A stretch of DNA of 64,000 nucleotides from an uncultured virus (IMG/VR IMGVR_UViG_3300017767_000007) (IMGVR_UViG_3300017767_000007); one strand, 5' to 3'. Numbered from the stretch's first letter, positions 12,528 through 58,375 are shown. A program made the numbers and translations. The notes: a model not told the origin generated them from the sequence alone.

Positions 12528-12553
12528 ATTTGTATAACACCAGATCTGCAGAT

Positions 12554-12742
12554 GAGATCTCCCCCGCAACCAAAAAAAATACTGCGTTCCTGCTGCTGCA
12601 CCAGATGAGGTCTGTATATGTAAAAAACACAGCGCCAGCCTGCTGCTGACGAGATCTCCTACAAAATAGTAAAAAACATCTGCGAGGTCCTGGGACCTCC
12701 CCCTGACAGACAAAACTAAAAGATAGCGCAGGCTGCTGCTGA
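12554..12742. repeat. Degenerate ~48 bp tandem repeat (about 4 units; further copy at ~13304-13355)
   Basis: Units of GAGRTCT/GGACCT ... A-tract ... GCG ... CTGCTGCTG. Confidence 0.6.
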
Positions 12743-12743
12743 T

Positions 12744-13079
12744 TCAATCTTCGTCAGGCCAGCAACTGCTGCATTCGCATCCAACATAGCACCAGGGTTC
12801 TTCAGACTTAGGCTGCAAAATAATCTTTGGTGGGCCTGCATCTTCAGCCCAGGGGTCAAATTCTTCTTCATCAGCAACAACAGGTTCTTCCTGGTGAAGC
12901 GTTTCCAGCATCCACAGGACGGATTCAACTTGGTCAGGTCTTAGCTGGCCATTGTTCTTGTTTACAGGAATCTGGGATTGGAACGCCTTATTGCAGGAAG
13001 GGCAGACCCATTTGTTGCCCAAGCAGGCCTCCATTACTATGCCACATTCGCAGGCAATCTGTACAGAAATCTGCATCAT
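12744..13079 (-). CDS. Zinc-ribbon hypothetical protein
   Basis: CECG...CPSC and C-terminal CECSSC. Confidence 0.55.
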   Translation of the reverse strand: MMQISVQIACECGIVMEACLGNKWVCPSCNKAFQSQIPVNKNNGQLRPDQVESVLWMLETLHQEEPVVADEEEFDPWAEDAGPPKIILQPKSEEPWCYVGCECSSCWPDED

Positions 13080-13219
13080 TCATCACCACACATGCAGGGC
13101 ATCAGAAATCCCTCGTTGTCTTTTATCGGCAGGCCTCGTGTTTTAAATCCACCACAAGTCAGGCATTGCTGCGCCATGACATTGCGGAAGATTGTTCCAG
13201 ATATGGTTTCGTTCCCCAT
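13076..13219 (-). CDS. Small zinc-ribbon protein
   Basis: CLTC...CMC; ATG 13219 about 22 nt after TATA at ~13241. Confidence 0.5.
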   Translation of the reverse strand: MGNETISGTIFRNVMAQQCLTCGGFKTRGLPIKDNEGFLMPCMCGDE

Positions 13220-13370
13220 GTAACTGCTACTACTAACTACTATATAAGTCTTTAAGAGGTCTCCACAGATGGTTATATCGGGAGAATTTAGCCTGCAGGC
13301 CAACAGATCTCCCCAGCCAGCATAATAAACAAAAAAAGCTGCGCCTGCTGCTGGCAGGCTTCCCAAACGG

Positions 13371-13407
13371 AAAAAGCTGATGCAGGGGCCTGAACCCCCG
13401 CACCAGC
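13371..13407 (-). terminator. Hairpin + T-tract terminator
   Basis: Minus strand GCTGGTGCGGGGG-TTCAGG-CCCCTGCATCAGC then T-run. Confidence 0.65.
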
Positions 13408-13555
13408 GGCCACCTGACTAAACAGGGTAATGCCCCATGAAACCCCGAACAGATCTCATAGGGCGGTTATGCGGTTGCTGTATCTGTGCCTTCCTCATCA
13501 CACGCATATCGGTATCATAACCTGCAAACCTGAAGATTGCTGCTAAGCTGAAGAA

Positions 13556-13891
13556 TCACTTCTTAGCCTTTGCTGCTTTTTTCTTCGGTGCTGCTTTAGC
13601 TGCTTCCTTTGCTTTCTTTGCGTCTGCAAGGGCTGTTGCCGTCTGCTTTGCCATCAAGGTTGCTCCCATAAGGTTTGTTGCTGCCTTTACTGTCTTAGCT
13701 GGGTGTGCCTCTACATTGCATAGAATAAGGTTCGCTACTGCTTCGCTGCTTACCACAAGGTTGCTGAACTCCTCTTCCGAAATGTTCCCGTCTGTTAGCT
13801 GTTGCATGTTATACATCTCAACTAATCTGCGTTGCTTGTTCACGGTATCGCAAATCTGCTTTTGCTGTGCGTCTCCAAATTTATTTGTCAT
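13556..13891 (-). CDS. Hypothetical protein with histone-H1-like Lys/Ala tail
   Basis: GGAGGTGG RBS before ATG 13891 (ORF track extends to 14005); ends AKKAKEAAKAAPKKKAAKAKK. Confidence 0.7.
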   Translation of the reverse strand: MTNKFGDAQQKQICDTVNKQRRLVEMYNMQQLTDGNISEEEFSNLVVSSEAVANLILCNVEAHPAKTVKAATNLMGATLMAKQTATALADAKKAKEAAKAAPKKKAAKAKK

Positions 13892-14303
13892 CTTTTCCAC
13901 CTCCTTCCCCTCTTGTCGTGGACTTTTTCGACCTGATTGGTCGGGCGTATTGCTGTCGCAATCTGATGGTATCGGGGCATCGCTACCTGTCATTATTTCC
14001 GCCATGAATCAGTTATTGCATCCAAGTATATAAGTGTTTAGCAGATGAGCACAGGGGGTATAATCACGATTTTTAGGCAGGTCTCCACAGCATGTTGGCT
14101 CAGGAAAAAGTAATCTGGTATGTCAGGTAAGTTTCCTGGCAGTACCTCACAGTTAAAAAAGATAATCCCTGCAATAAAGTTTATATCAGACCTCCTACTA
14201 AAAATATAATATATCAGTTCCTGTTCCTACAATCTCATAGAGGCTCAAGAACAGCACACTTCTTGGATTTCAAAATCAGGCTATTCCTCCAAACCTTTAA
14301 GTA

Positions 14304-14525
14304 TCAGATATCACATTCACAGGCAAATACAGCATTTGGAGCACCCTTCATACCAGCAGCCTGATTGTTGCCACCGCAGGTTTTACAGAAATGCTTCACA
14401 TTCAGCATACAAGAGGTATCATTGCAAAATCCTGTTCCATCAACATCAACACCGCAGATGCAGGTTTCGCTGGTGGTAGCACAAATAATGCAGGAAGGGG
14501 GACAAATATCAGGCATCAAATACAC
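14304..14525 (-). CDS. Cys-rich hypothetical protein
   Basis: ORF track; multiple CxxC. Confidence 0.45.
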   Translation of the reverse strand: MYLMPDICPPSCIICATTSETCICGVDVDGTGFCNDTSCMLNVKHFCKTCGGNNQAAGMKGAPNAVFACECDI

Positions 14526-14794
14526 CGCCAGCGTGTAGGAGGAGTTACAGTTTTACCACCAGGTTTTACTTCACCGCAGGAACATTCAGCAACATGAGGG
14601 AATTGAATCCTTGACAGTTTATTCAGCAAGATTGCAGATACTTCGTGTATGCAGAAGCCATCACCATGTTCAGCAACAACAGGTTTACCACCTATTTTCA
14701 GGCTGAACCATTCAAATGATTCCAGACTATCAGGACTATACCGTATATGAGTATGCCCCAGACTTTCTATTTCTATTGTGAAACCAGCAACCAT
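14516..14794 (-). CDS. Hypothetical protein
   Basis: ORF track; coupled to neighbours. Confidence 0.5.
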   Translation of the reverse strand: MVAGFTIEIESLGHTHIRYSPDSLESFEWFSLKIGGKPVVAEHGDGFCIHEVSAILLNKLSRIQFPHVAECSCGEVKPGGKTVTPPTRWRCI

Positions 14795-15126
14795 CAGATG
14801 TCACCCCACTTCAGGACTTTCCTGCTTTTGTATCTTTCAAAGCCAGATTTTTCTCCACCAACAGGATGCGGGATAACATTTTGCAGGCCGATGAAGAACA
14901 TCAGGTCATGGAGCACCATCAGGTTTTCTTGGTGGCATAATCGCAGACTTACCAGTTTTCTATATGCTATAATTTCAGCAATTTCAGATATACCCATGTT
15001 CAGGACATCAGGCCATTCTTCTTTTTCGACCAGCGACATCAGTTTTCTTCTATACAATTCAGGGATATATTCTATTCCCAAATGTTGCAGGTATTCCTCC
15101 AATGCTTCATCTTCAATCAGTGACAT
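14794..15126 (-). CDS. Hypothetical protein
   Basis: ORF track; coupled; heavy CTG usage. Confidence 0.55.
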   Translation of the reverse strand: MSLIEDEALEEYLQHLGIEYIPELYRRKLMSLVEKEEWPDVLNMGISEIAEIIAYRKLVSLRLCHQENLMVLHDLMFFIGLQNVIPHPVGGEKSGFERYKSRKVLKWGDI

Positions 15127-15400
15127 CAGATTTACCCCACAAGTTCAGATTATACCATACAATACCAGCAACAACAGGTTTTTCCCTAATATCCGCACCA
15201 GATTGCAGACAATGCAGGCTAACGGGTGTCGCTACAGTTATGTTCAGGTGACCAGACCATATAGATACTTCTAACAGGTAGTCAGGTGTGTCGAGATTAA
15301 CCAATTGTTCATCAGTTAATCTGTCTTTTCGTTCTTCAGATTTTGTCAGGGATTTCCCCCCTTCAGGTTTTTCTTCCATGTTATGAGGTAGTAAGTTCAA
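15113..15400 (-). CDS. Hypothetical protein
   Basis: Likely leaderless ATG 15379 after TATA at ~15404. Confidence 0.5.
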   Translation of the reverse strand: MNLLPHNMEEKPEGGKSLTKSEERKDRLTDEQLVNLDTPDYLLEVSIWSGHLNITVATPVSLHCLQSGADIREKPVVAGIVWYNLNLWGKSDVTD

Positions 15401-15634
15401 GTATATAAGGTTTTAGCAGGTCTCCTAAGCAAGCCAAATCAAGCCATCAGGTCTCCTTTTATCGTTGAGATAGATAATATATTGTGTGTCTGGAGGTAGC
15501 ATCTGTCACCATGAGCGATAAAAAACCTAAAAAGCCTCTATTCCTGCTGCTCGACTTCCCAACAGACCTCCCAATCAATAGACTTTGACAGGCATCTGTG
15601 GCCTTCTGCATGGATAATAGACCAAAATTCAGAT

Positions 15635-15901
15635 TTACAATATTGACAGATATACCTCTTCACCAGTTTCCTCCCCATCATATACTATCTCACCGAACAG
15701 ACGAGTAAATTCTGCACCGTATGTTTCCCAGCAATTAAATTCATTGCATCTGCTTGAACAGGCTGGACCTGAACAATCGAGGAAATTTGGGTCATGTGTG
15801 AGAAACCACTCATGTTGCTGTTTTGTAATTGGTCGCCACAGATATTCAGTTACCATCTGATTCAACCTCCTTAACTGCGTCAAGCAGGGATATGTCGTCA
15901 C
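15635..15901 (-). CDS. Hypothetical protein
   Basis: ORF track. Confidence 0.45.
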   Translation of the reverse strand: MTTYPCLTQLRRLNQMVTEYLWRPITKQQHEWFLTHDPNFLDCSGPACSSRCNEFNCWETYGAEFTRLFGEIVYDGEETGEEVYLSIL

Positions 15902-15976
15902 ACTTCAGGCAACGGCTGGTATCACCAACAAGAGCCATCATCTGCGAACAATTGATACAAGCACGAGGAATACTGC

Positions 15977-16453
15977 TTAACATCTTAATTCCTCATCTGT
16001 GAACCACAAGTCATCATGGTTGGCTGTTCTATCTCTTATTGCCATTAGAATATCTGATGGGATTGTGAAATAACTGCCCTTGCCTCGTGTGAAGTCATAG
16101 TCAGTTCCTGTATTCATCCAACCTATTGTTGCCTGTTTGTACTGTTTGAACCATTGCATCTGCATAAACTGTGTCACAAGTTTTTGCCTGATAGTGTATT
16201 CGGCCTGTAATGGGACATTTGCGTCTGGGCAATGATGTTCCCTGCACCAATTTTCCCACAATTCATCTGATAATGCTCCTTCATGTTCAAGGATTATCTG
16301 TTCCCTGTCTTCGCTGTTCACCCAACCCATAATTCCTGATTCTGCGAAGTCCCATGCGTAGGGCTCCTCTTCCTCTTGGGTTGTTCCTGCTTGCTCATTC
16401 GTTAATTCCTGCCATCTGTATAGATGGTATGGAATCGCTGTTTCTTTTTCCAT
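15977..16453 (-). CDS. Hypothetical acidic protein
   Basis: ATG about 24 nt after TATA at ~16477. Confidence 0.7.
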   Translation of the reverse strand: MEKETAIPYHLYRWQELTNEQAGTTQEEEEPYAWDFAESGIMGWVNSEDREQIILEHEGALSDELWENWCREHHCPDANVPLQAEYTIRQKLVTQFMQMQWFKQYKQATIGWMNTGTDYDFTRGKGSYFTIPSDILMAIRDRTANHDDLWFTDEELRC

Positions 16454-16627
16454 ATTACGAGATAGATAGTTCCAATATATAAGGTTTTGGCAGAAGTTAT
16501 CTGTTTATTTTAATCAAGCAATCTGAATCGCAGTCGAAGCATACCAAATGCAGGGTATCATACGAATCTCCAACAGCAATGATATTATCGCTGCCACAAT
16601 CTGCACATGCCATGTAAAAATCTGAAC

Positions 16628-16897
16628 TCATACTTTCCACCCGTCTGCTGTTGCTTGTGCATCTGCAATCTTTTGAATCTTGTCAGACCATTCCTGCGTA
16701 TAACCACCTTCCCTGATAATCTGTCCGATGGTTTGTCCGTTATCAAGCCTCAAATACAGAAATCGTCTGGCCATGTCAAGGCTCATTTTATCTATTGGAA
16801 TCTCCTCAAAGAAGGTATGAGCAAGTGCTCCTATTATGCCCTTTAATTCGTGAATCTGCATTTCTGCCTTTTCTAAATCGGTAAAATCTGGATTCAT
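16628..16897 (-). CDS. Hypothetical protein
   Basis: Likely ATG 16897 just after stop of upstream gene. Confidence 0.55.
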   Translation of the reverse strand: MNPDFTDLEKAEMQIHELKGIIGALAHTFFEEIPIDKMSLDMARRFLYLRLDNGQTIGQIIREGGYTQEWSDKIQKIADAQATADGWKV

Positions 16898-16898
16898 C

Positions 16899-17453
16899 TC
16901 AATGACCACCACTAATGCTGGCTTCGTAGTAATCTGATTCGTATTTGGATATCTCACATTGCTCATCTTCGTCGTGAACATAATCTGCAAACTTGGTATA
17001 TTCCTCACAATCTGTATTACCATCGAATAAATCCCAGATATACTCAAACGCCCTATCCAGTTTTACTGATAAATGATTGTAAAGATTCCAAAAACTGCCG
17101 TAAAATGCTGGTTTGGCTACAATTGGCTCTTCGCTGAAGTGTTGCTTTGTCGTCTCCATACCCTGTATAGCGCATGAATAGTGTCCTGCTAATTTCAACA
17201 AAAGATTCTTTTGCTGTTCCATCTCTTCTTTAGTCCAATTTACATAATCTGGTGTAGCATCGTTATATCTGATTGATGCACCTAAAACTGACATAAGCCA
17301 TTCCGCCTCAATAACGGGTGGGGTATCTGGAACGCAACCAAATCCTGTAATTGCATTTTCCATTGCCTGTTTTTCCTCATCACTAAGATTTTCCCTGATT
17401 ATAATAGGTTTATCTGGTGCTGGTAATCTGAAATATTTTTCAATATCTGTCAT
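16899..17453 (-). CDS. Hypothetical protein
   Basis: ORF track; promoter at ~17507. Confidence 0.65.
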   Translation of the reverse strand: MTDIEKYFRLPAPDKPIIIRENLSDEEKQAMENAITGFGCVPDTPPVIEAEWLMSVLGASIRYNDATPDYVNWTKEEMEQQKNLLLKLAGHYSCAIQGMETTKQHFSEEPIVAKPAFYGSFWNLYNHLSVKLDRAFEYIWDLFDGNTDCEEYTKFADYVHDEDEQCEISKYESDYYEASISGGH

Positions 17454-17616
17454 TCGTTCTTCACTTCCCTGCTTTCTTTTCGCATAATATCAGATAGACC
17501 TAACTTATATATAAGGTTTTGGCAGATCTCCACAAGTCGTTCAGACGCCCAACATGGGGGATATAGGGAGTATCAGCAGGCGCAATTTCATGTGAGCACA
17601 AGATAAAAAACCTGAA

Positions 17617-17967
17617 TCATTCTTCTTCCTGCTGCTCGTCTTCTATGAATGCTTGCAGATGTTTTTCCGCCCTGTCTAACTCATCAATCTCTTTGTCATC
17701 ATCCCATGTGCAGGTTTTAAGCCAAACTGATGATACACCTGTATGGTCTGCATGTAATTCCCAATGCCACAATCGCTGGTTACTGTAATGTAGGTCGCCA
17801 AGAGGACAATGTGTTCTTTCCAGTAAACTATCTATTCGCAGGTTTACTGCAAGACTAATTTCTGATTTAGCAAAGAGGCTGATATGCTCAATACCGTATC
17901 TTGTTTTACATTTCTCTAACAACAGCAAAGAATCTTTGCTATTCCTGATTAGGATTTCGTAGGCCAT
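17617..17967 (-). CDS. Hypothetical protein
   Basis: ORF track; promoter at ~17992. Confidence 0.6.
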   Translation of the reverse strand: MAYEILIRNSKDSLLLLEKCKTRYGIEHISLFAKSEISLAVNLRIDSLLERTHCPLGDLHYSNQRLWHWELHADHTGVSSVWLKTCTWDDDKEIDELDRAEKHLQAFIEDEQQEEE

Positions 17968-18080
17968 GTATTGAGGTAAATACTAATAGTATTTATAGTT
18001 TTAGCAGACCGCATGAGCACTAATACAGATTCAGATCTCCTACGCTAAATACTTATATACTATTACTAATTACCTCTATT

Positions 18081-18190
18081 TGTTCCGTTAGGTGAAAAGA
18101 TGAAGCAGACGACACCCCCTCCAACGCTTTCGTTCAGCGTGTTTCTGATTTCTTTCATGTCTTTCGTTTGCAGATTTTCCCTGCGGAACA
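18081..18190 (+). ncRNA. Candidate ~110 nt stem-rich RNA
   Basis: TGTTCCG/CGGAACA closing stem starting about 25 nt after a TATA box; internal ACGCT/AGCGT hairpin. Confidence 0.45.
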
Positions 18191-18200
18191 CCTATTTACT

Positions 18201-18272
18201 GGGCTACAAGTATCAAGGAGATACACTGTCTTTGGTTTGGCAGAGGGCGAGGTTCAATTCCTCGGTAGGCCT
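18201..18272 (+). tRNA. Atypical tRNA-like gene (Pro-TGG-like, 8-nt anticodon loop)
   Basis: Acceptor GGGCTAC/GTAGGCC (1 mismatch), D stem GTAT/ATAC, anticodon stem CTGTC/GGCAG, T arm CGAGG-TTCAATT-CCTCG. Confidence 0.7.
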
Positions 18273-18308
18273 CCTATTCCACCCTAATACAGAAGTGGAG
18301 GTAATAAT

Positions 18309-18515
18309 ATGGTAAAGATAAGCAGAAGAAACAGTAAAGAAGTATGGCAAACAGATATACCTAAAGATAAACTCAGCAAGTGGGGTTATCCTGATGAAAG
18401 GTTTTTCAGTTTCAGCCGTTGTGTATGGCGAACAGAAGAAAAGTATGAATCCCTGTGGATTCCTCGACATTCCTCACACAACCCCTATAATCAATTGGAG
18501 GCATTAGATGTCTGA
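18309..18515 (+). CDS. Hypothetical protein
   Basis: GGAGGT RBS. Confidence 0.55.
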   Translation: MVKISRRNSKEVWQTDIPKDKLSKWGYPDERFFSFSRCVWRTEEKYESLWIPRHSSHNPYNQLEALDV

Positions 18516-18861: not shown

Positions 18862-19038
18862 TGGCTCATTACATGTATTGTAGTATTCCTGACTGTGATA
18901 ACAAAACAGATATGATGGGATTTGCTATCTGTTCCTCTTGTTTCCAAAAAGCAGTAGAAATAACACAAAAAGCAGAGGCATCCTCTTAAAATCTTATATA
19001 TTAGTAGGTAATAGCAGTAATAACACACAAAAGAACAG

Positions 19039-49700: not shown

Positions 49701-52700
49701 ACCAGACCAAGCATAATACCATGTATATGTTGTCTTTGTCTGTCCAGCTCCTTCAACTGCTACTATTCTTCCAACTCCGCTATCATCCCATTCTGTAACA
49801 TCGTCGAGGTATAACCTGTTAATTCCACTAAAATTATCTGGTTGGTTTCTTTTTACTTCCGACGCATCTTGAATAAAGTCCATTTGTTGAGGGTGAGGCA
49901 TATATGGGTGTTGAATAGTTTTGTATGAAGGCATTGCTTCAATCCAATAGTTATCCATCATAATTGGGAATCCGTGACCTACTGCAAAGTAATCTTGTAG
50001 GTCTGTCCTCCCACCACCTATTCTTCCTGTCCTTCCAAGATTTGCTTCAGTATTCACATTCCAGAATTTGCTTGTGTCAATAACAACAAAGGAACCTGCT
50101 TTATCTTCCCAATTGTGGTATATTGAATTAGAGTCAGAGTTTGAGCCAAGAGGTAAAGCAGACCAGGGTGCTTGAGTTACAGGTTCAAGCGTTGAATCTA
50201 ATTCCCATATGTCTAAGTCTTCACCAACCTTCAAATCAGCAAACTTAACAGGCGAGCCGTCAGGTTCTTCTGAATCAACAAATTCCATGCTAACACTATA
50301 ATTATTAGAAATAGGCATCATTAAACCAAACTTCTTTTTCCTTAAACCAGAATCAGCGTTAGCAGTTCCATCATTTCTCATATCAGCCCAGAGAATCCAA
50401 ATGTGTTTGTAATCGTTATCAATTTCTCTAAATCTTACAATACTTCCTGCAGAGTGGAATTTAGACAAAAATTGTACTCCTGTAATTGAAGCATAAGTCT
50501 GGTCGACTGCGTTAAAACCAGCTAAACCTGTAAATGTAAAAGAATCTACTGTTCCGTCAGCATCCACAATTTCTCCAACGCCACCTGATGTAGCCATTGT
50601 AGTTACTAATCCTATTGGGTTTCCTGTTGTTTGGTCGTTTAATGCTAATCTTGTATTTGCTATTGATACTGTTTGACCAGTTGTATATGCGTTAGGAAAA
50701 ATATCTGAAGATAATAATACATCTGGGTGATAGGTTGAACCATTTTTACCTTGACTGATTTTCTTTTCCTTGATACGCCCAAACTGCATTTGAAACCACT
50801 TAGATTTAGGCATATCTTGAATCCAACGAGAATGTACTGCTCTATATGGTCTGGCAATAGAATTATTAGCAGCAGCAAGAGGTGCAGTCGCTTGTTCGTT
50901 GCAATATTCTAAGTCAGGACTATCATACAAAAACCAGCCAACTTCTCCAGCAGTTCCTAATCCAAGCCCTGTTATTTCGTTGTGGTTATAATATAGGTTC
51001 GCTAAATCTCCATAAGTAGCGTTATATGTTCCGTTACCTAATTGAGAAACTTCAAGATAATGTGTCCCATCAATCCATGTTTGGCCTGGGTCTGGCATAT
51101 TACCAAAGCCTGTGATTTCAAATACAAGAGTTACAATCCCATCCCAATTATTACCTGTTGTCCCTTGTGGAATTTGAATTGGGTTTCCTTGAGCGTCATT
51201 CCCACCATATCTAATTACCAAGCGTTGCCCAATGTATAAATCCCAGATGTTGATATTTTCACCTGTCTTAAAGTAAAGTTTTGTTATTAAATTCCCAGCA
51301 GGTTCTGAGCCACCATGAGCATTATCAAGTATATTAGTAGCACTCCAATATTGCCAAACATTGTCGCCATTAGAATTAACTCTAAACCAACCCAACCTAT
51401 TTAACCAATCTTGCTGAGTATAGGAAAGTGTAGAATGAGCAGCATTCCAACTGGCATCAAACATTTGTCCAGCAAAAGTATCGTTATTTTGATTTTGACT
51501 TGTTGGTGGGCCTGGTAAAGCAGACCCAAACCCATTCCAACTTCTATACAAATTATCAAACGGAGTACTTCCTACAGTATAACCTCCACCAGGAACTTGT
51601 GCTCTTCCTGTCTTTGGGTTGTTAGGAATATCAGCGTCAATCAAAGCAAAATGATAACCACAATTTGAGCTCCTTGTTGTTTGTTGCCAATTTGTAGGGT
51701 CAGGAATATCTCCAGACCAAAGGGTATTAGGGTAATCGTGTTGAAGTGGTGTAATGTTTGCTGTTGTGTGCTTAACCCTATTACTGCTGGTTAATCTCAT
51801 TGGAATATCAAGGTTACCTCTTGTTAGGTCACGAGGAGTTACTGTTACTCCATTAATTGTGGTGGATGAGTCGCTTGGTAATTCAGATATTCTATTATAC
51901 CTTTGACCTGACTGACTTGCACCTCTAAAAACTCTTGTGTCTGAAATAGTAACATATTGCTTTTCCCAATCTATTAAATGTCTTGTGTTGCCTGCAGAAG
52001 AACTAACAAATTCACCACCTAAAAGAGCTGGATTTTTATAGATTTCATCGAATTGCAAAGTCCAGTAATGCTTTAGTCCTGTCTTATGCCTTCCGTCATC
52101 ATAACTGTCATTGTTGTCAATAGCCAAAATTTTACCTGATGGGACATATGTTTTGTCAATGTAAAAGTGATTTGTTGATGGGTCGTGAACTGTAAATGAG
52201 CCACTATAATTAGTTGAGCCTTGTATGTTTATTGTTTCTCCTTGAGTATATCCGTGAGCATCAGAATAAACTCTTAGTGGGTTTGTAAGTGCAGATGGAT
52301 TAGCATAAGTCGCTTCAGGCTTTTGGAATCCATAAATGTGAGTTTGACCTACATAATCGTATATAGTATCAGGTGCTCCTCCTTCTTCATTATACATTTG
52401 AATTGGGTGTCCCGAATTTAATCTCATTCTTGTTGATGTATCTGCATTATAGTTCGGTCTTTCATAACCTAAAGTACCTGTGCCTCTTTCAAGAGAAGTA
52501 GCACCTAAATGCAACTTTTCAATAAAGTTTGCAGATTCGTATGGTCGCCAGCCAATAGGTTCGGTTTCATCTATTTGTTCACTTTGTCCTACTTCCCAAA
52601 TAGGTATTGTTCGGTCAAGAGAAGCCAAATAATCTCTGGCACTCAACTTTATGATTTTTTCTCCAGGTCGGTTTTGGTTGCTGGTGTATCTTTCAATATG

Positions 52701-54365
52701 CCCTCTCCAAACGCAACGATGGATATTATCACGGAATAGCATCAGTTCTTGCAGTTGGTTTGTTTCTTCTTCAAAGACCTTAAAAATATCTAAGTTATCG
52801 AAATCATCATGTATGTCTAACTGGCATTGAGATATACCGTTTGAAGTATAGTTAATAGAAGCCCTTGACAAAGTAACCTGTTCACCGCCAATGCCAGATG
52901 AATCTGCAATATCACGCCAAAGATATGCTCGGTCAAGAAGTGTTGTAATTTGAACATAATCTGTGTCTGTCCCTGCTTCTTGGTAGCCATCAACCAATCC
53001 ACTATCAAGGGACAAATCCCAACCAAAAACTTCTGGTGCTTTGTATTTATTTCCTGTATCGGGGTTAATTCCTATTGCTTGTGCTGAAGCAACAACTTCA
53101 CCGTCATGTAATACATCATAAGTTCCTGCAGTCCAGTCAAACTTAAATTCAATATCATTCCAAATTTGCAGCAAAGTCCAGCGCCTTGTTTGGTCGGCTG
53201 ATGGTATAGCATTATCAGATGGAAAAGATGTGCTTTCAGGCGTTTGTCCGAAGTTTGCTAATACATTGTAGCCTCCGTCAACTGCGCCACCAGCCATTAC
53301 AAGAGAAGCAGAGTTTGAACCTGTTAATGCTGATTTTTTAAACCAGGGGTTTCTGTCAAGATAACCTGTTTTTAGACCTGTTGCTTCGGCTGTCAAAGGC
53401 GAGCCGCTGATTGCTGCGTTTTGTTTTCTTGAAGAAGTGGTAAATGTGTATGTAGCAGCTGGTACTGCTGAAGAAAATCCGTTAGCGTCAGTGTAGTCAT
53501 CCCTTCTAAATCCTACTTTTATTGTGTAAGAATGACCTGTTGATTGTCCGTTGTCCCAACCAGACCAATTGCGCCAAGCCATTCTAAGTCCAAAAATGTC
53601 TTTATCAGATGCAGCTCCTAAATTAGCGTTATAGGAAACAAGCCTTCTGGTCATATTTTCTCTAATGTGAGTGTTAATTGCTAACATAGGTTTTCCAGAA
53701 TCAAGAGATTCAATTGGTTCTAAGATAGCCTTTGAAAATGGGTCTCCTGCATAACCTGTTTTTAGTTGGTTAGCGTCTGGAGCAACTTCTCCTACATGAA
53801 CGCTGCAAATGTTTGCATATTGAAAGATGTTAGTCGCTGAAGCAAAGGAATCAGATTCAGCACTCCCACCTTTGTATAAATTGCTTGAAACCATATCAGG
53901 AATCGTGATTGCTGCGCTTTTTCCTTGCGATGGGTCATTGTTACCCAAATGAACAGAATAACGCCCAGAAGTGTTATATCCGTTTGTTAAAGTTTGAAAG
54001 GAATCAAGAGATGCGTCTGCACCAAATTTGTATCGGTTGCCTTGTGTAATACCATCGGGATATGAGGGTTGAGCCTTTCCTTCATACTTCCCAGAGTTTT
54101 TTCTCATAGTGTCGTTTGTTAAAAATTCATGAGCACCTAAATTATGAGTTTCATCTCCGTCAACTCGCTCTTTGTATGCCTTTTTGTATCGAGGGTTAAG
54201 GCGAGCCTCACCATTTAAAGAATTACCAAAATGGCTTGCTGTGTGAACAATTAGTCCAGTTAAATTAGGGTTGTTTTCATCATCAGCAATTGCTCGACTT
54301 GCGTTAAAGTCGTCATAGTAACCTGCCAAAAATACTGAATACTTTCTATCTACTGACTTTGCCAT
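46752..54365 (-). CDS. Very large tail tip/central fibre protein
   Basis: 2537 aa directly after tape measure; hub-like segment (WRGHIERY...SARDYL); Pro/Gly linker. Confidence 0.75.
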   Translation of the reverse strand: MAKSVDRKYSVFLAGYYDDFNASRAIADDENNPNLTGLIVHTASHFGNSLNGEARLNPRYKKAYKERVDGDETHNLGAHEFLTNDTMRKNSGKYEGKAQPSYPDGITQGNRYKFGADASLDSFQTLTNGYNTSGRYSVHLGNNDPSQGKSAAITIPDMVSSNLYKGGSAESDSFASATNIFQYANICSVHVGEVAPDANQLKTGYAGDPFSKAILEPIESLDSGKPMLAINTHIRENMTRRLVSYNANLGAASDKDIFGLRMAWRNWSGWDNGQSTGHSYTIKVGFRRDDYTDANGFSSAVPAATYTFTTSSRKQNAAISGSPLTAEATGLKTGYLDRNPWFKKSALTGSNSASLVMAGGAVDGGYNVLANFGQTPESTSFPSDNAIPSADQTRRWTLLQIWNDIEFKFDWTAGTYDVLHDGEVVASAQAIGINPDTGNKYKAPEVFGWDLSLDSGLVDGYQEAGTDTDYVQITTLLDRAYLWRDIADSSGIGGEQVTLSRASINYTSNGISQCQLDIHDDFDNLDIFKVFEEETNQLQELMLFRDNIHRCVWRGHIERYTSNQNRPGEKIIKLSARDYLASLDRTIPIWEVGQSEQIDETEPIGWRPYESANFIEKLHLGATSLERGTGTLGYERPNYNADTSTRMRLNSGHPIQMYNEEGGAPDTIYDYVGQTHIYGFQKPEATYANPSALTNPLRVYSDAHGYTQGETINIQGSTNYSGSFTVHDPSTNHFYIDKTYVPSGKILAIDNNDSYDDGRHKTGLKHYWTLQFDEIYKNPALLGGEFVSSSAGNTRHLIDWEKQYVTISDTRVFRGASQSGQRYNRISELPSDSSTTINGVTVTPRDLTRGNLDIPMRLTSSNRVKHTTANITPLQHDYPNTLWSGDIPDPTNWQQTTRSSNCGYHFALIDADIPNNPKTGRAQVPGGGYTVGSTPFDNLYRSWNGFGSALPGPPTSQNQNNDTFAGQMFDASWNAAHSTLSYTQQDWLNRLGWFRVNSNGDNVWQYWSATNILDNAHGGSEPAGNLITKLYFKTGENINIWDLYIGQRLVIRYGGNDAQGNPIQIPQGTTGNNWDGIVTLVFEITGFGNMPDPGQTWIDGTHYLEVSQLGNGTYNATYGDLANLYYNHNEITGLGLGTAGEVGWFLYDSPDLEYCNEQATAPLAAANNSIARPYRAVHSRWIQDMPKSKWFQMQFGRIKEKKISQGKNGSTYHPDVLLSSDIFPNAYTTGQTVSIANTRLALNDQTTGNPIGLVTTMATSGGVGEIVDADGTVDSFTFTGLAGFNAVDQTYASITGVQFLSKFHSAGSIVRFREIDNDYKHIWILWADMRNDGTANADSGLRKKKFGLMMPISNNYSVSMEFVDSEEPDGSPVKFADLKVGEDLDIWELDSTLEPVTQAPWSALPLGSNSDSNSIYHNWEDKAGSFVVIDTSKFWNVNTEANLGRTGRIGGGRTDLQDYFAVGHGFPIMMDNYWIEAMPSYKTIQHPYMPHPQQMDFIQDASEVKRNQPDNFSGINRLYLDDVTEWDDSGVGRIVAVEGAGQTKTTYTWYYAWSGRNTVDNYLNNVFVDIVGGLNGVPTKTAAERTIAANNIKAAQQNGSSSRAIFDLEDYDSVTAYNSYAPLSGMRFMMRISGKVENENSGTWFESEKFRFLNMLSLTKNWLGKSQFTGISSFKNVPQTKIMSTNGSATIGSPHWGHNNTQFDSFGSVVNAKNSTMYSAIVKIQKAAGTGTSGLGQTFTYQIGPDGRIELRPGYNSFRSLDRSVLNISNMNTSIQQRVTHVRVYFNDSKSFCDYPKVVGTENIRWKIMDMPDVGTKAEAEYLAKQEYLKAKKAPVSLNAKVVRGTQSDDVMLDGARYGYIADPQRTVYGKYPHYMMGRMNNNFFSGSVSALDGQLNNTNTPLIGASNRDASVVNASDEITWAGNNYWYGANSLANAIEVVYVPQGLPKYSMTTGNQLRFIISVDGTRSGAPTPGTIDEAATSAKFIITVIDPIFRDNATRNTGFVSSNGTDSNGDPNLIGEAEWFGACNRGDLNHIAAVNAAGQGHSHANDFFSQTVSYGSLDNGFLELNLPPTYAFGTGIVNKIIVSVNREYLESLIRMRCGDTLGNILNPAHGVPVESAPTNYFTLLGSGSYNDKSIFPLGCRYYDEFGSGMRDRTLWYAPRLIINDDINFRTGTALQYSDSTYGFTNKPLIINNVQWKINPLRHEEVVLGLTTDESHFLSNLGSMFLTPPIINDPKPSPAGPGGTSGRGDSDEDDGEPVPPGGDTTGPAPKPRPRPELTPPGTFGSQTGYTTASTIGINQVSKGIMGRLKKKMQVPMGNSEWGLLGQDRPLPAAIETSVLVSNDGVFTPSGGSAALSETGISLPGRTFAAGDSEQAEVSEVSGIQVVPNNVTNNSVTILSKVDTTVHSESAQTNQSTIPTPSGIGLNTNPTAEGFAKIYTTVKVVETGFSKTETLVIPINQNGLRHNLFNQKIEGADVAGNHLEITIRRAAGINGDTAAQESVKLSSISVTMKTGANMVDGPGEVFDTNVVSR

Positions 54366-54367
54366 TA

Positions 54368-57300
54368 CTAATCCACTGCTCCACTTCTAACCACTCCAGC
54401 ATCAACTAAAGCACTAACTACTTCTTCGGTAATCGTATCAACCATTTCATGTAGCAACATACCATTAAAGTTGTTAGTTACAACCAGCTCAGTGTTTGCT
54501 ATAAGGTTTTCGACTCCTTTATTTTGGACTTGCTTAACGAAGTCACCTGATATACCTGATTGGGAAAGACCGAAGAACATTGCTTCACGGTTGTTGTTAA
54601 ATTCCAACATTGTATCTCCTAAATGTTGTATTGAATCAGCCACATCATCAATATCATTCATGCCACCAGACCCCATGCTGCTAATTTCATCAACGAGGAA
54701 TTGTGCTTCTTCAGTCGTCATAGAAAATTGCTTTTCTAAGTCATCCACTACCTCTTTGTATTTCATAACAGAGCCTGTGTCAAAGTCGCCTGAATCATCA
54801 ACTGCTACTGCCAACATTTCTATTTCTTTATCGGTAAAGTTTTTGTCTAAGAAGTCCATAAATTCAGTAGTATATTCACCACTACTTGCTACTGCATTTG
54901 CGTAAGTTTCACTAAAGTTTGAAGCTGAATTTCCTATAACTTCGAGCAAATCTTCCATTTGAGCAGCACTTGCATTAATTCCTTCTTCTTGTTGGAAAGC
55001 AGCAATTATGGCAGCAACAGTCTTTGTTGTATCATCTTGCAGACCTTTAGTTTCTCGATATGAGCCCATACTTGCTCCACCAGTAACATAATTTAGAATA
55101 CCCATTCCCAGTGCATCATCGTATTCGTCTTCATATTCGTCTCTAAATTGACTCACTGCGCTGGCTGCATTTGCACTTGCGTCATCAGACATTTTCTTTT
55201 GCATTTCTGCTAATTCGCCTTGTAATACGAGTTGAGCAATCAATAGAGTTTCTTGAGTTTGCAAAGCACCAACATACTTTTGAGCGGCCTCTAATTGCAT
55301 CATAAAGAGCCTTTCTTGAACAGTAGCACCGTCACCTGCTTTTTCTTTTAATTCATCCATTTCATCTTTTACAATTCCAATGGCTGTTTGAGTTTGCTCT
55401 AATCCCATTGCATTAATTGTATCAGAATCTATTCCAGCTTCTAAAAAGGCATCACGAACCATTGTTGGAACATCTTCTAATGCTGGTTCTAAACCTGTAT
55501 TTCTTAAGTCTGTTAAAAGTGTGAGGCTGTCAGTTAAGTGTCCGTTAAATTCAACAACACCCTCGCTCATGCTGTCTACTGAATCTGTAAATAAGTATGT
55601 GGCAGCAGTAATAGCAACTACAAGAGCGATACCAAGACCTGTGCTTACCAAAAAGGCTTTCATACCAGCAGCAGCAGCTCCAGCAGCAGCAGCAACACCT
55701 TTTAAGGAAAAGGAAAGTGTGTTGTTTGCAACAGCAGCACCCATACCTGCCGTTGCTTGTGCGAGCATAGAATTTGTCATCTGCATCATTTGTACTGTGC
55801 TCATAATCATAACAGGCATCATTAACGCCATGCTTGCTTTAGCACCCTTAGATGAATCGTCAAATAAAGTAATTAATGCAGATGCACCTCCTAAAATACC
55901 ACTATACTTTGTCATTGTAGCATTCATAGCCATTTGCTTTGCCATCATCCTATCTTGGGTTTGAGCATGAGCAGTTTGAGCCATAATTATTTGAAACAAA
56001 TTGGCAATTTGTTCCTCAGTTTGGAAGTTGTTTTCTTTCATTAACTGTGTTAAAATTTTAAGAGCCAAAGCCTCTTGGTCAGTCAAATCTTCCTTAATGA
56101 ATTTTTTGGCAGTTACCCTTTCTATAATGGCAATTTCTTCTTGGCTCACATTATTTAGCATATCTTGAGCACTCATGTGTTTATTCAAAGACAAAGCAAT
56201 TTTTTCATTTTGCACTAACCTTTGAACCATCATTTGTAGATTTTTACCCTTTCTTTTGTCCTCTTCACCACCAATCAGCTTTTCTAATTCAAGTGACTGT
56301 CGAGCCATCAACAAGTCTGATTCGCTAATGCTTAACTTCATTCTTTTATCATTGAGAAGTTGATTTGCTAAGTCTTGCTCTATCATTCCTAACTCAACCA
56401 ACCTCCCAAGCAGTTGAACTTCATGTCCTGCATTTTGTACAGTTGTAGTACCACTTCCAACCTTAGCCATTTGTATCGCATGAATATTTCTCAATGCTTG
56501 TTCTTCTTGGTTAATTAGCATCAATTCATTACTTCTTAGTGCTACACCAGCCCTAACTGCTTCTAATTCTTCAGCAGACATTACTTGATTAGCAGCTGCC
56601 CTCGCTTGCACAACAGCAAGAATGCTGTTTTGTGCCTGTTCACTTTGCTTTACAGCATTAAGAATTTGACCTTCTAAACCAGCAATTTCAGCAGCAAGTC
56701 CTCGTCTTCGATTAGCAAGAGCGTTTATATCGCCTGCAGCTGAAGCCTGCATGTGCATTTTCAATAAAGTATTAGTCCCAGAAAATTCTTTCATCTGCTC
56801 ATATGCGAGTGCTGTTTTACCTATGTTAGCAATCCTTTGTCTAACTTGCATTTCTTTTATTGCCATATCCGTTGTAAAACTTTGCATTTGTGCTGCTTGG
56901 TTATAGATTTGTGGATTAACCAATTGCTCGCCTTGCATAGCCCTTAGAATCGTTTGCTGGGTCTGCATTGCTACACTTAGGGATTTAATGTTAATCATGG
57001 CTTCCACGACAGGCCCCATCACCTTTTGCACCCTTTGGAATGCAAAAGCAAAGTCCATACCTTTTTTTACTACTGAGCCTAAAACAGCATCCATAATATC
57101 GAAGTTTTCAAAGTCTAATTTTGCTAATGCCTTAAAATCATTAGTTATACCTCCAAGAGGACCCTCAGACCCAGATTCGTAAAAGTCGGTCATAGCCCTG
57201 TTAAATGATATTTGTTGTTTTGTCGCTTTCATTTGTGCTGGGATAAAAGCAGTACCCATTGCTGCTTCGGTATTCTTTAACTCGGCTTGGAGTTTCTGGA

Positions 57301-58375
57301 GTTTAGTTGCTTGGTCGTCAAGTTTAATATTAACTTCATCTTGAGCATCTGATAACCCAAGAGCAGCCTGAGTCGCTAATGTTTGTTGTCTATCAGCACC
57401 TTCAACTAACTTAAGGAATCTTACATAGTGGTCGTTACCAGCAACTATTTGAGCAATATGTTGCTTTTCAGCATCTTCTAACTTAGGGAATTGTTGCGCT
57501 AACTGTTGAACAATGTCAGAAAGAGGAAGCAAGTTGCCTGCAGTATCTTTAACTTGAACACCATAAGCCTGTAAAATCTTATTGTTATCGTGGGTATCAG
57601 AACCTAATCGAGCATAAATCATTTTGAGGGCACGACCAGCCTTACCCATCTCTTCACCAGATTCAACCATTACTGCAGCACTTGCAGCCATATCAGCAAT
57701 AGATTCACCTGTCATGTGTGCCTGACTTGCGAATTGATTCATAATGAAAGTAATTTGTTGCATTGTAGCAGCAGATCTGTTTTCAACTGTGTTTAGTTGA
57801 GTCAAAGTCTTCATAGAATTTGCTCTAACAAAGTTTGCTCTTTCTTCAGCATCCATAGCCTCAATTTGAGACTTAGCCATACCACCGAACATAAAGTTAG
57901 TCTGTTGTTGCAGGTTTACCATCTTTTGCATAGCATCTTGGGTTTCCATATCACCAATCAACGCAAACTTAATACCTACCTCAGTCGCAGCAACAACTGA
58001 ACCTTCACCACCTACTACATCTTTAAGTTGTGCCATTTTAGCACCAGCCTCAAGAGCCTTATCAGCAGTAAATCCAAATTGTAAACCAATGCTCTTAATT
58101 TGTTCTCTGACTTCTTCAAGATTTTCAGTTTCACCCATAAACTTGTCAAATTGAATACGAGCCTTAGCAAATTCTTGAGCCAAAGGGACAGTTGCTTGGA
58201 CTAATCCATCCATTTGCTCTGTTATCTGGTCAACTGCTTGGTGAACACCCGAAAGACCGTTAAGCATAATAGCATTCATAATGTTCATCTGTGCTCTTGC
58301 ATCAGACAAAAGACGCTTCGCTTGAAATGAACCAACCACTTCAAACATTACCATTGCTGCGCCTGTGGTTGCCAT
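54368..58375 (-). CDS. Tail tape measure protein
   Basis: 1335 aa Ala/Gln-rich helical; GEEMGKAGRALK pattern; hydrophobic segments. Confidence 0.9.
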   Translation of the reverse strand: MATTGAAMVMFEVVGSFQAKRLLSDARAQMNIMNAIMLNGLSGVHQAVDQITEQMDGLVQATVPLAQEFAKARIQFDKFMGETENLEEVREQIKSIGLQFGFTADKALEAGAKMAQLKDVVGGEGSVVAATEVGIKFALIGDMETQDAMQKMVNLQQQTNFMFGGMAKSQIEAMDAEERANFVRANSMKTLTQLNTVENRSAATMQQITFIMNQFASQAHMTGESIADMAASAAVMVESGEEMGKAGRALKMIYARLGSDTHDNNKILQAYGVQVKDTAGNLLPLSDIVQQLAQQFPKLEDAEKQHIAQIVAGNDHYVRFLKLVEGADRQQTLATQAALGLSDAQDEVNIKLDDQATKLQKLQAELKNTEAAMGTAFIPAQMKATKQQISFNRAMTDFYESGSEGPLGGITNDFKALAKLDFENFDIMDAVLGSVVKKGMDFAFAFQRVQKVMGPVVEAMINIKSLSVAMQTQQTILRAMQGEQLVNPQIYNQAAQMQSFTTDMAIKEMQVRQRIANIGKTALAYEQMKEFSGTNTLLKMHMQASAAGDINALANRRRGLAAEIAGLEGQILNAVKQSEQAQNSILAVVQARAAANQVMSAEELEAVRAGVALRSNELMLINQEEQALRNIHAIQMAKVGSGTTTVQNAGHEVQLLGRLVELGMIEQDLANQLLNDKRMKLSISESDLLMARQSLELEKLIGGEEDKRKGKNLQMMVQRLVQNEKIALSLNKHMSAQDMLNNVSQEEIAIIERVTAKKFIKEDLTDQEALALKILTQLMKENNFQTEEQIANLFQIIMAQTAHAQTQDRMMAKQMAMNATMTKYSGILGGASALITLFDDSSKGAKASMALMMPVMIMSTVQMMQMTNSMLAQATAGMGAAVANNTLSFSLKGVAAAAGAAAAGMKAFLVSTGLGIALVVAITAATYLFTDSVDSMSEGVVEFNGHLTDSLTLLTDLRNTGLEPALEDVPTMVRDAFLEAGIDSDTINAMGLEQTQTAIGIVKDEMDELKEKAGDGATVQERLFMMQLEAAQKYVGALQTQETLLIAQLVLQGELAEMQKKMSDDASANAASAVSQFRDEYEDEYDDALGMGILNYVTGGASMGSYRETKGLQDDTTKTVAAIIAAFQQEEGINASAAQMEDLLEVIGNSASNFSETYANAVASSGEYTTEFMDFLDKNFTDKEIEMLAVAVDDSGDFDTGSVMKYKEVVDDLEKQFSMTTEEAQFLVDEISSMGSGGMNDIDDVADSIQHLGDTMLEFNNNREAMFFGLSQSGISGDFVKQVQNKGVENLIANTELVVTNNFNGMLLHEMVDTITEEVVSALVDAGVVRSGAVD

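Follow-up and report, generated by a model that had tools for sequence, protein, structure and literature searches.

Palindromic sites surviving in the DNA of a magrovirus-like virus follow an SAG flank rule that suggests a protective DNA modification

RESULTS

Features of the Locus

The DNA analysed here, called the window, is the whole 64-kb stretch from an uncultured virus. Its tailed-virus morphogenesis genes, its archaeal-type replication set (PolB, RFC, and chaperonin), and its marine relatives are magrovirus-like (magroviruses being viruses of Poseidoniales, as described in PMC5434244), in agreement with the first-pass annotation, which had called it a marine archaeal virus. The gene for the terminase large subunit lies at 8962..10446 on the plus strand, and 44 nt past its stop begins a 1.76-kb stretch (10493..12251) that is free of the word SAG (S = C or G) on both strands and holds small plus-strand ORFs at 10916-11287, 11617-11844, and 11841-12032, together with the start of another at 12029-12448. 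A hairpin terminator (12487-12518) comes after this stretch and is followed by a largely non-coding repeat region (12520..13560), which has the top SAG density of the window (49 per 500 nt compared with a mean of 26) and contains four CCTGCTGCTG-type copies, five of the nine GATC sites, and several W-AGCTG sites. Further along, a variable slot is bordered on the left by a conserved core gene (37521..38342, plus strand) and on the right by the family B DNA polymerase gene (40447..42645, plus strand). Within it lies the plus-strand gene (38636..39811) for a 391-residue protein of phrog_11143, in which an ABC-type ATPase is fused to a GNAT acyltransferase domain (ABC-GNAT). Nucleases encoded in the window are Mre11-like, Cas4-like, ERCC4-like, and T4 endoV-like.

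Short Palindromes Are Purged, and the Survivors Overlap SAG

Exact counts over the 64-kb window show that dozens of short restriction-enzyme target words have been removed from the virus DNA, with palindromic 4- and 6-mers far below the expectation of a first-order Markov (dinucleotide) model. GATC is found 9 times where ~235 copies are expected and AGCT 39 times where ~253 are expected; GTAC is found 46 times with 147 expected, and ACGT, CCGG, CGCG, and CTAG have no copy in the whole window. Of the 64 six-letter palindromes, 34 are missing. The most over-represented dinucleotides are CA and TG. Depletion of short palindromes is common to all 80 relatives collected. According to PMC8919816, most archaeal MAGs have methylated GATC, and AGCT, CGCG, and GTAC are marked in Poseidoniia or Euryarchaeota, which is consistent with restriction pressure on the purged words.

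All nine GATC survivors lie in AGATCT, and all nine in SAGATCTS, their half-sites being nine CAG and nine GAG. Had there been no purge, 4.3 SAGATCTS copies would be expected, compared with the nine seen, and of ~230 other GATC copies expected none is left. Two of the sites read CAGATCTG, one at 12541..12548 (G of GATC at 12543) in non-coding DNA and one at 57772..57779 (G at 57774) within a tail tape-measure-like gene. Another two, at 12554..12561 (G at 12556) and 12651..12658 (G at 12653), read GAGATCTC and are non-coding copies of repeat D2. The remaining five read CAGATCTC: 13304..13311 (G at 13306), also a non-coding D2 copy; 13450..13457 (G at 13452); 17523..17530 (G at 17525), part of promoter-like repeat D1/D6, which lies upstream of an ORF on the minus strand; 18032..18039 (G at 18034), adjoining the promoter-like inverted repeat I1; and 45733..45740 (G at 45735), within the ERCC4-type nuclease gene. 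Seven of the nine are non-coding, and because at least six belong to a single promoter-like repeat, CAG(A/G)(T/C)CTCC, they are not nine independent events. The 39 AGCT sites span 2129..63103, and each is flanked by C or G on one side at least, with S on both flanks in 25, on one in 14, and on neither (WAGCTW) in 0, where the dinucleotide model expects 52, 126, and 76; the probability of 0/39 WAGCTW, by arithmetic from base frequencies, is ~3e-8. CAGCT is present on one strand in 36 of the 39, and many of the sites are in frame as NCA-GCT-G. The first-pass annotation had placed all nine GATC sites exactly and had rightly seen no WAGCTW, its six AGCT examples all being present, although its figure of about 30 AGCT sites was too low. 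The check proposed with it, exact counts with flank tables, leaves neither word at the chance ratio in non-SAG flanks (ACGT, CCGG, and CGCG being absent outright), and chance is excluded as the source of the GATC and AGCT flank pattern.

The rule reaches ten palindromes beyond these two. In an unbiased scan of the neighbours of survivors, which covered 198 surviving sites and 226 motif classes (short words), CAG (83 versus 39, z 8.7) and SAG (106 versus 61, z 8.4) rank first. SAG overlaps all 16 survivors of GAATTC (4/4), GATATC (7/7), GTATAC (4/4), and GTCGAC (1/1), for which 17.8, 11.7, 7.3, and 3.7 unshielded copies are expected and none is found, and overlap is likewise complete in AGGCCT (7/7), AGCGCT (2/2), and AGTACT (2/2), with 3.3, 2.0, and 3.9 unshielded copies expected and again none found. 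The strand requirement is graded: GATC has SAG on both strands, six-letter sites on one, and AGCT is intermediate. The shielding SAGs are spread over every codon phase, either strand, and non-coding DNA in the same proportions as SAGs in general, so that the rule is not a codon effect. SAC gives no protection in the window, where SACGT is found 0 times with 53 expected and SA|CCGG, SA|CGCG, and SA|CTAG are all 0; the first-pass analogy with a Mom-type SASNY specificity therefore does not fit. There are exceptions to the rule: GTGCAC and GTTAAC are at 0 despite 3.0 and 3.5 expected SAG-flanked copies, SAG is missing at 21 of the 46 GTAC and at both GCATGC survivors, and TTGCAA (8), CATATG (6), and ACATGT (4) persist where SAG overlap is impossible.

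The SAG-free leader described in the first pass is borne out: between positions 10491 and 12251 there is no start of a CAG, GAG, CTG, or CTC, although the dinucleotide content of the stretch itself predicts 57. No words other than CAG and GAG have a giant gap (57 and 38 times their mean spacing), and for both it lies at 10.49-12.25 kb.

The Footprint in Related Viruses

With the family B DNA polymerase we collected and placed 80 marine relatives of 60-68 kb. The ABC-GNAT gene occupies the slot where sister viruses hold a DNA methyltransferase, and we distinguish the ABC-GNAT viruses (class I), those with the methyltransferase in the same slot (class II), and those without a shield (class III). 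The pooled SAG shield has a z of 5.6 in the 4 other ABC-GNAT viruses, 6.3 in 8 viruses with the slot methyltransferase, and -2.5 in 46 with neither. Shield and SAG-free stretch were both seen again in 5 related genomes, and 9 others have neither; the nine complete relatives carrying neither ABC-GNAT nor the slot methyltransferase show neither footprint, and in the 9 complete shield-less genomes there is no SAG-free stretch, the largest SAG-free gaps being 127-236 nt. The arrangement of a terminase gene followed by a SAG-free stretch is shared by the window, G005, G011, and G012, and G013 has a GAG-free stretch and likewise a GAG-only shield. Among methyltransferase variants the shield word is SAG in G008 and G012, RAG/AG in G011, and GAG only in G013. 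Protection also depends on register. In class I the observed/expected ratios, compared with control, are 0.232 versus 0.05 for SA|G, 0.234 versus 0.06 for S|AG, 0.288 versus 0.06 for SA-inside|G, and 0.062 versus 0.031 for S-only; in class II protection comes mainly with the A inside (0.715 versus 0.214), SA|G being at 0.068 versus 0.03-0.05; and class III is flat.

The ABC-GNAT Protein and the Search for Known Enzymes

In a phyletic screen the ABC-GNAT gene was present in 4/4 other class I genomes and 0/9 of class III, the only gene so distributed, making its product the only lineage-specific candidate for a SAG-modifying enzyme on sequence grounds. The GNAT assignment comes from the Acetyltransf_1/7 profiles, PF13508 (6.7e-7) and PF00583 (5.7e-6), and an acyl-CoA loop of the R/Q-x-x-G-x-G/A type; the segment R..VVLPDYQGLG is conserved, with R282, V284, L286, P287, D288, Q290, and G291 invariant in 36 sequences, and the fold model (pLDDT 86.5) gives a GNAT match to 2ae6. 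The ABC-type ATPase has a conserved Walker A, LSGGQ-like signature, Walker B, and H-loop (GxSGxGKT, LSNGE, IDEFTSVVD, and SCH), and numerous ABC nucleotide-binding domains match it weakly in NCBIfam and the PDB. Thousands of phrog_11143 homologues occur in phages and prophages. In 45 loci of at least 9 kb from unrelated phages, these homologues go with no SAG shield (~141 overlaps versus 155 expected). Among such loci of at least 4 kb, 50 show a GATC purge. Grouped by SAG class, the GATC sites left in them number 1, 9, and 47, where 17, 267, and 1037 would be expected, and the pattern across the classes is flat; AGCT with S on both flanks is found 0 times with 100 expected.

No Pfam, NCBIfam, or PHROG match to a DNA methyltransferase, Mom, or DpdA was found in the window, and a six-frame search of it with the relatives' modification enzymes as queries found nothing. 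The Mom family (PF25680), a GNAT domain with an HTH-like insertion, had no match among the 66 window proteins at E<=0.01, and the best E reached by phmmer with a relative's Mom on all six frames was 1.7; the Mom target word SAS (SAG plus SAC) differs from the SAG-only protection seen here. N6/N4 amino-methyltransferases (PF01555, PF02086, and PF05869), marked by SAM-binding FxGxG and (D/N/S)PPY motifs, had no window match, the best E with an HMM of the relatives' family against six frames being 0.38, nor did C5 cytosine methyltransferases (PF00145; best phmmer E of 0.14 with the C5 enzyme of G008) or the DpdA transglycosylase of 7-deazaguanine DNA modification. Relative G010, the positive control, carries a true Mom (1e-34) and DpdA (4e-74). 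The first-pass term "undescribed system" has to be narrowed: an amino-methyltransferase of ordinary appearance is encoded by sister viruses that show the same footprint, and the lack of any known modification enzyme is confined to this virus and its nearest relatives.

DISCUSSION

The strong depletion of 4- and 6-letter palindromes is the same as that of restriction-site avoidance in phage and archaeal virus genomes. Unlike in ordinary avoidance, the survivors here obey one flank rule, which would read out a second, protective layer, and a word-free stretch accompanies the purge. The proposal, already made in the first pass, that SAG carries a protective modification fits four independent lines, all drawn from sequence statistics, namely the motif scan, the other palindromes, the SAG-free stretch, and the recurrence in relatives, and we judge it, with some reserve, to be probably the best reading. 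A base in 5'-SAG-3' would be modified after replication, on each strand separately. Host restriction enzymes would cut unmarked short palindromes, selection would have deleted nearly all copies of ~40 words, and sites that include the A or G of a SAG would be masked and tolerated. Protection is equal with only the G inside the site (SA|G...) or only S and A (...SA|G), which implies that the mark would disturb recognition of both neighbouring base pairs, and the pattern suggests a mark bulkier than a methyl group. The 1.76-kb SAG-free stretch would be a segment kept free of the mark; our guess is that it might enter the cell first, evading modification-dependent nucleases until early genes act.

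Whether the virus itself determines the mark we regard as evenly balanced. The ABC-GNAT protein is put forward tentatively as the likeliest enzyme, which would draw on ATP and on a donor of acyl or aminoacyl groups (compare Mom and TmcA). It seems to us somewhat unlikely that the fusion would turn out to be a DNA-modifying enzyme of a novel type, an acyl- or aminoacyl-transferase driven by ATP that attaches a bulky group to the A (or G) of double-stranded SAG, in viruses that pair the mark with a mark-free, first-entering segment to slip past modification-dependent nucleases. Counting against the SAG reading as a whole are the searches of the window that found no known modification enzyme, the ABC-GNAT homologues elsewhere that go with no shield, the exceptions to the rule, and the membership of most GATC survivors in one repeated regulatory word; two unrelated enzymes (ABC-GNAT and the methyltransferase) would also have to have nearly the same three-letter specificity.

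A host enzyme could instead make the SAG mark, to be inherited in each cycle by two virus lineages whose hosts have a SAG-type methylase, with ABC-GNAT unrelated to it. The failure to find a known modification enzyme in the window, the ABC-GNAT homologues elsewhere without a SAG shield, and the association of one motif with two different slot genes would all suit such an origin, yet the shield follows viral gene content (z 5.6 and 6.3 versus -2.5), its fine specificity follows the viral methyltransferase variant (G008, G012, G011, and G013), the register pattern is not alike in the two viral classes, and SAG, CAG, and RAG have no whole-word matches in the available text of the marine methylome study (PMC8919816). 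We therefore hold a host-made mark to be unlikely. A distinctly unlikely alternative is that SAG is primarily recognized by a nicking or cutting enzyme that the virus itself would direct against host DNA in chlorovirus style, the mark serving as self-protection and the shielding arising as a by-product; the SAG-free stretch would then be, with as little probability, the part that must survive unmarked. The strand-symmetric absence of SAG over 1.76 kb, at the level of double-stranded DNA, suggests action on unmarked SAG, and several nucleases are encoded, as listed above. However, the phyletic screen found none specific to SAG-positive lineages, 33 loci without a shield have the T4-endoV-like gene and its neighbour g32015, and the same modification would still be required.

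Two further accounts dispense with protection. Survivors might be kept by function (regulatory words or protein constraints) or by composition, with SAG enrichment a side effect of CAG/CTG-rich sequence, as the largely non-coding, repeated GATC sites, the excess of CA and TG, and the in-frame AGCT sites might suggest. This is very unlikely, since dinucleotide content is already in the expectations, the rule spans at least 10 palindromes, three registers, and both coding and non-coding DNA, and does not hold in related viruses of similar composition (46 loci and 9 complete genomes), and 0 of 57 expected SAGs over 1.76 kb would be left unexplained. Scarcely credible is the idea that host enzymes need particular flanks, the avoided words being truly longer (WAGCT, or GATC not preceded by SA). 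For any one palindrome it makes, by logic, no formal difference whether it is "avoided unless S-flanked" or W is part of the avoided word, but more than 10 unrelated restriction specificities would need one SA/S flank rule, class III relatives have purged these palindromes too without following any flank rule, and the SAG-free stretch is again unexplained.

Protective modification of SAG has several partial precedents. The GNAT enzymes Mom and TmcA act on adenine N6 and cytosine N4, respectively. Mom of phage Mu (6-NcmdA on adenine in SAS, formerly SASNY) shares with the present case a short degenerate word starting with SA and a post-replication mark on double-stranded DNA that blocks many restriction enzymes, and a GNAT domain, the fold of the Mom catalyst (PMC13219725), is likewise part of the present candidate; unlike Mom, the candidate is fused to an ABC-type ATPase, and SAC is unprotective. 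With TmcA, the tRNA(Met) cytidine acetyltransferase, the candidate shares the two-domain logic of a P-loop NTPase and a GNAT, and its model matches 2zpa_A in Foldseek at rank 28 (E 2.6e-7, 431 columns) with a TMq of only 0.25, but its ATPase is an ABC-type nucleotide-binding domain (LSNGE signature), with no helicase and no tRNA-binding domain. The chlorovirus methyltransferase M.CviQII reportedly recognizes RAG and is said to be paired with a nicking enzyme, Nt.CviQII, acting at R/AG. As here, this is a virus-marked three-letter NAG word, and the class II sister magroviruses resemble it in their SAG, RAG, or GAG shields with the A needed inside the site; in contrast, the window virus is without a methyltransferase, and its register pattern is unlike that of its methyltransferase-bearing relatives. 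The first-step-transfer DNA of T5, which reportedly has no EcoRI sites, is also a genome segment with special word content and is thought to be exposed before protection, whereas the word missing here is the presumed protective word itself and first entry is a guess.

A further anti-restriction function of the virus is the ArdC-like protein (ArdcN plus zincin peptidase) encoded at 20023..21189 on the plus strand.

Palindrome Depletion and the SAG Flank Rule

Exact counting bore out what the first-pass annotation had claimed for two tetramers, namely that GATC and AGCT survive only where they are overlapped by the word SAG (S is C or G). All nine GATC copies in the window (G at 12543, 12556, 12653, 13306, 13452, 17525, 18034, 45735, and 57774) are AGATCT and all nine extend to SAGATCTS, and there is no WAGCTW (W is A or T) among the 39 copies of AGCT. 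A dinucleotide model predicts 235 GATC and 253 AGCT sites. Divided by whether SAG overlaps on both strands, one strand, or neither, the GATC sites number 9, 0, and 0, compared with 4.3, 55, and 175 expected, and the AGCT sites 25, 14, and 0, compared with 52, 126, and 76 expected. Far more words are purged than the two originally noted: ACGT, CCGG, CGCG, and CTAG are reduced to zero copies, GTAC is present at 46 copies (147 expected), and 34 of the 64 six-letter palindromes are missing from the window.

SAG also emerged from an unbiased scan in which it was not assumed. Flank-dependent overlap of 226 word classes of two to four letters with 198 surviving sites of depleted palindromes was compared with a Markov expectation, and the top ranks were taken by CAG (83 versus 39 expected, z 8.7) and SAG (106 versus 61 expected, z 8.4). 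Among individual palindromes, SA precedes the G on one strand in every survivor of GAATTC (four), GATATC (seven), GTATAC (four), and GTCGAC (one), and S precedes AG in every survivor of AGGCCT (seven), AGCGCT (two), and AGTACT (two). The survivors of TGGCCA (3/3) and TGTACA (2/2) have a G directly after the site, which gives a CAG overlap from the other end. The four tetramers that are totally missing are words whose G can never have SA before it, and SAC is not protective, as SACGT has no copies in the window against 53 expected. The base 5′ of SAG shows a mild preference for G (57 versus 36) and against A (20 versus 36); this is inconsistent among relatives, and extra specificity bases beyond SAG were rejected.

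The distribution of shielding SAGs over all codon phases, both strands, and non-coding DNA mirrors that of SAG overall, and codons for Gln/Glu or Leu therefore do not explain the rule. The GATC sites taken alone are weaker evidence than they appear because most are copies of a repeated CAG(A/G)(T/C)CTCC that precedes the TATA-like boxes of small minus-strand genes, and seven of the nine are non-coding; it is the other palindromes that carry the case. There are also exceptions to the rule. GTGCAC and GTTAAC have zero copies despite about three SAG-flanked copies expected of each, 21 of the 46 GTAC sites and both GCATGC sites survive without SAG, and TTGCAA (eight), CATATG (six), and ACATGT (four) survive though SAG overlap is impossible for them.

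Five copies of a 52-nt promoter-like element stand before small minus-strand ORFs at 13993-18079, with an inverted copy at 18044-18079. Each is laid out as a minus-strand start codon, a TATATAAG-type box, and then TTTTAGCAG(A/G)TCTCC, and together they have the look of a promoter family for early genes that shares a conserved upstream word.

A SAG-free Stretch beside the Terminase Gene

A second footprint is the absence of the word itself. Within 1.76 kb (10491 to 12251) there is not a single start of CAG, GAG, CTG, or CTC, where the stretch's own dinucleotides predict 57. When the longest gaps of all two-, three-, and four-letter words were scanned, those of CAG and GAG reached 57 and 38 times the mean spacing, and that of the next word 14 times. 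The stretch begins 44 nt past the terminase stop codon, contains four small plus-strand ORFs, and has a strong hairpin terminator beyond its end; the region of highest SAG density in the genome comes after it. It is near-identical across four independent viromes, with three variants inside it, none of which creates a SAG, a number too small to carry weight.

Nearby are two hairpin terminators of opposite orientation, at 12487-12518 (+) and 13376-13407 (−). At 12572-13353 there are three copies of an A-run with ...CCTGCTGCTG after it, and a related fourth copy is at 12719-12741 (direct-repeat families D3 and D19); this repeat region may serve as an origin, in packaging, or in the loading of an enzyme. 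Elsewhere, ∼1-kb gaps of CCG and ACG, each 10-11 times the mean spacing, lie at 55750-56869 inside the tape-measure-like gene and are possibly due to chance.

Both Footprints Follow a Variable Slot in Relatives

Relatives were collected by means of their family B polymerase (PolB) from marine metagenomes (n = 80, 60-68 kb), and the palindrome purge is present in 80 of 80. They differ in a variable slot between a conserved core gene (37521-38342 in the window) and the polymerase (40447-42645), whose content defines three classes. In class I (the window and loci L002-L006), the slot holds a gene for an ABC-type ATPase fused to a GNAT domain (ABC-GNAT); in class II (eight loci), a TCPPY-motif amino-methyltransferase, in most cases adjoined by a PLP-enzyme gene; and in class III (46 loci), neither of the two. 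The pooled SAG shield is z 5.6 in class I (49 versus 29.9 expected, from four loci of other viruses) and z 6.3 in class II (98 versus 63), compared with z −2.5 in class III (90 versus 111). A SAG-free stretch of 1.1-1.8 kb lies directly past the terminase gene in the window and G005 of class I and in G011 and G012 of class II, and in none of the nine complete class III genomes, where the largest SAG-free gaps are 127-236 nt. The two footprints are thus concordant in the fuller genomes, and in G013, which has a divergent methyltransferase, the shield is GAG only and the stretch is free of GAG only.

Classes I and II are separate lineages in the polymerase tree, where a class III clade is the sister group of class II (98% support). 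The trait may nonetheless have had one common origin in the two classes, because the tree leaves its backbone without resolution.

Different lineages seem to use different shielding words. Among further relatives (L037, L071, L137, and G018) the shields are AAG (z 5.0), AGCT (z 4.7), TCGA (z 6.6), and CG (z 4.9), and in the class III genome G010 (loci L116-L119) purged sites are shielded by GATC (z 10.2). This last virus encodes an N6/N4 methyltransferase, DpdA (4e-74), and a true Mom-family protein (1e-34) beside RFC. Its genome also has a twofold over-representation of AGCT (505 versus 247) and lacks AGCT over 2.2 kb near the terminase gene.

In G007, G008, G011, and G012 (e.g. L101:2075-4866) the slot beside PolB encodes a permuted amino-methyltransferase (FAGG... 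then TCPPYGD), adjoined by a PLP-dependent enzyme of the ACC-deaminase/D-cysteine desulfhydrase type; G008 has a short C5 methyltransferase in addition. The pairing of methyltransferase and PLP enzyme hints at more than plain methylation.

The Nature of the Proposed Mark

Survival (observed/expected) was resolved by which bases of SAG fall inside the site, for five class I genomes, five class II genomes, and class III. In class I, survival is raised with only G inside (0.232 versus controls of ∼0.05), with A and G inside (0.234 versus 0.06), and with S and A inside and G outside (0.288 versus 0.06), and is 0.062 versus 0.031 with only S inside. Protection in class II is strong only with A inside (0.715 versus 0.214 and 0.215 versus 0.103) and weak with only G inside (0.068 versus 0.03-0.05); the class III pattern is flat. 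On this sequence evidence, class II viruses would methylate the A of SAG, and we infer that the footprint of the class I mark includes the neighboring base pair, so that the mark would be bulkier than in class II.

Search for a Candidate Modifying Enzyme

Profile searches and a six-frame search with the relatives' proteins found no methyltransferase, Mom, DpdA, or PLP enzyme in the window. All window ORFs of at least 60 aa were then screened phyletically against five class I, five class II, and nine class III genomes. The ABC-GNAT gene (38636-39811, plus strand; 391 aa, phrog_11143) occurs in each of the other four informative class I genomes and is missing from every class III genome. One further gene, the small 32015-32455, has this pattern but is also found in viruses without a shield. 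It and its T4-endoV-like neighbor (30710-31267) were rejected as determinants, the 31 analyzable of their 33 homologue loci being without a SAG shield (best z 3.4, at one locus), as was the small GNAT at 46294-46755, which is not lineage-specific. Conserved core proteins of unknown function gave no methyltransferase signal in the 48 homologues scanned.

In the ABC-GNAT protein the ABC motifs are intact and the GNAT acyl-CoA loop is conserved. The fold model is confident (pLDDT 86.5), and a search with it returned only generic matches to ABC nucleotide-binding domains, small GNATs, and, loosely, TmcA. The family is very large (2476 matches, many in bacterial MAGs), and in other phages its members sit among genes for replication and recombination. 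No SAG shield is seen in unrelated phages that encode a homologue (∼45% identity) and have purged GATC or AGCT, and SAG specificity is not general to the family, if the family acts on DNA at all. We put ABC-GNAT forward only tentatively as the SAG-modifying enzyme, a role we consider somewhat doubtful.

Interpretation and Relation to Known Systems

The proposal of the first-pass annotation that SAG carries a protective modification is partly supported: the two footprints agree on SAG, and the modification itself is unproven. It is the best reading of the sequence data and probably correct. Palindrome avoidance itself is textbook knowledge. For the class II relatives the closest precedent is the methylation of RAG in chloroviruses. 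The logic proposed for the window virus is the same as that of Mom, a GNAT enzyme that uses Gly-tRNA as the glycine donor to modify adenine N6 within SAS words on double-stranded DNA and so blocks many restriction enzymes (PMC13219725); the window virus does not qualify as a Mom system, however, either by sequence or by its word, which is SAG only. A marine methylome study lists GATC, AGCT, CGCG, and GTAC marks in archaeal MAGs (PMC8919816), which fits the purged words.

The excerpts of the magrovirus literature searched make no mention of restriction, methylation, or palindromes, and a limited search by title and abstract found no published account of a shielded-survivor footprint. What appears to be new is the flank rule that exposes the protective word, the concordant absence of that word from a stretch next to the terminase gene, and a lineage in which both occur without a known modification enzyme. 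Sequence alone appears to reveal, for a virus never grown in culture, both which word is modified and which restriction specificities its host has; that host is presumably one of the most abundant ocean archaea. The footprints are independent, concord on the word, and follow small differences among relatives (SAG, RAG, GAG, and GATC). If the reading is true, they would offer a general route to predicting modification motifs in metagenomic viruses, and a virus without a known modification enzyme could point to a new enzyme family.

Genome and Gene Content

The window (64 kb, 40.5% G+C) encodes a tailed-virus module of portal, large terminase, tail tube, and tape-measure-like proteins, an archaeal-type replication set (family B polymerase, RFC-like clamp loader, chaperonin, and Cas4-like and ERCC4-like nucleases), and an ArdC-like anti-restriction protein; it has no tRNA genes. 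This gene set agrees with that of magroviruses as given in PMC5434244. An IMG/VR contig of identical sequence (G002) wraps around the window, implying that the genome is circularly permuted and ∼65.7 kb long; a 759-aa tail-fiber-like ORF is all that the remaining 1.7 kb contains.

A second variable slot, before RFC (29361-31267), holds a dNMP kinase (phrog_139) and the T4-endonuclease-V-like protein (Pyr_excise, phrog_624), neither of which tracks the SAG footprint. At 20023-22458 the ArdC-like gene lies together with a DUF1281_C (Api92-like) gene, both of types known from plasmid leading regions. The DUF1281_C gene is confined to SAG-positive relatives, occurring in two class I, two class II, and none of nine class III genomes.
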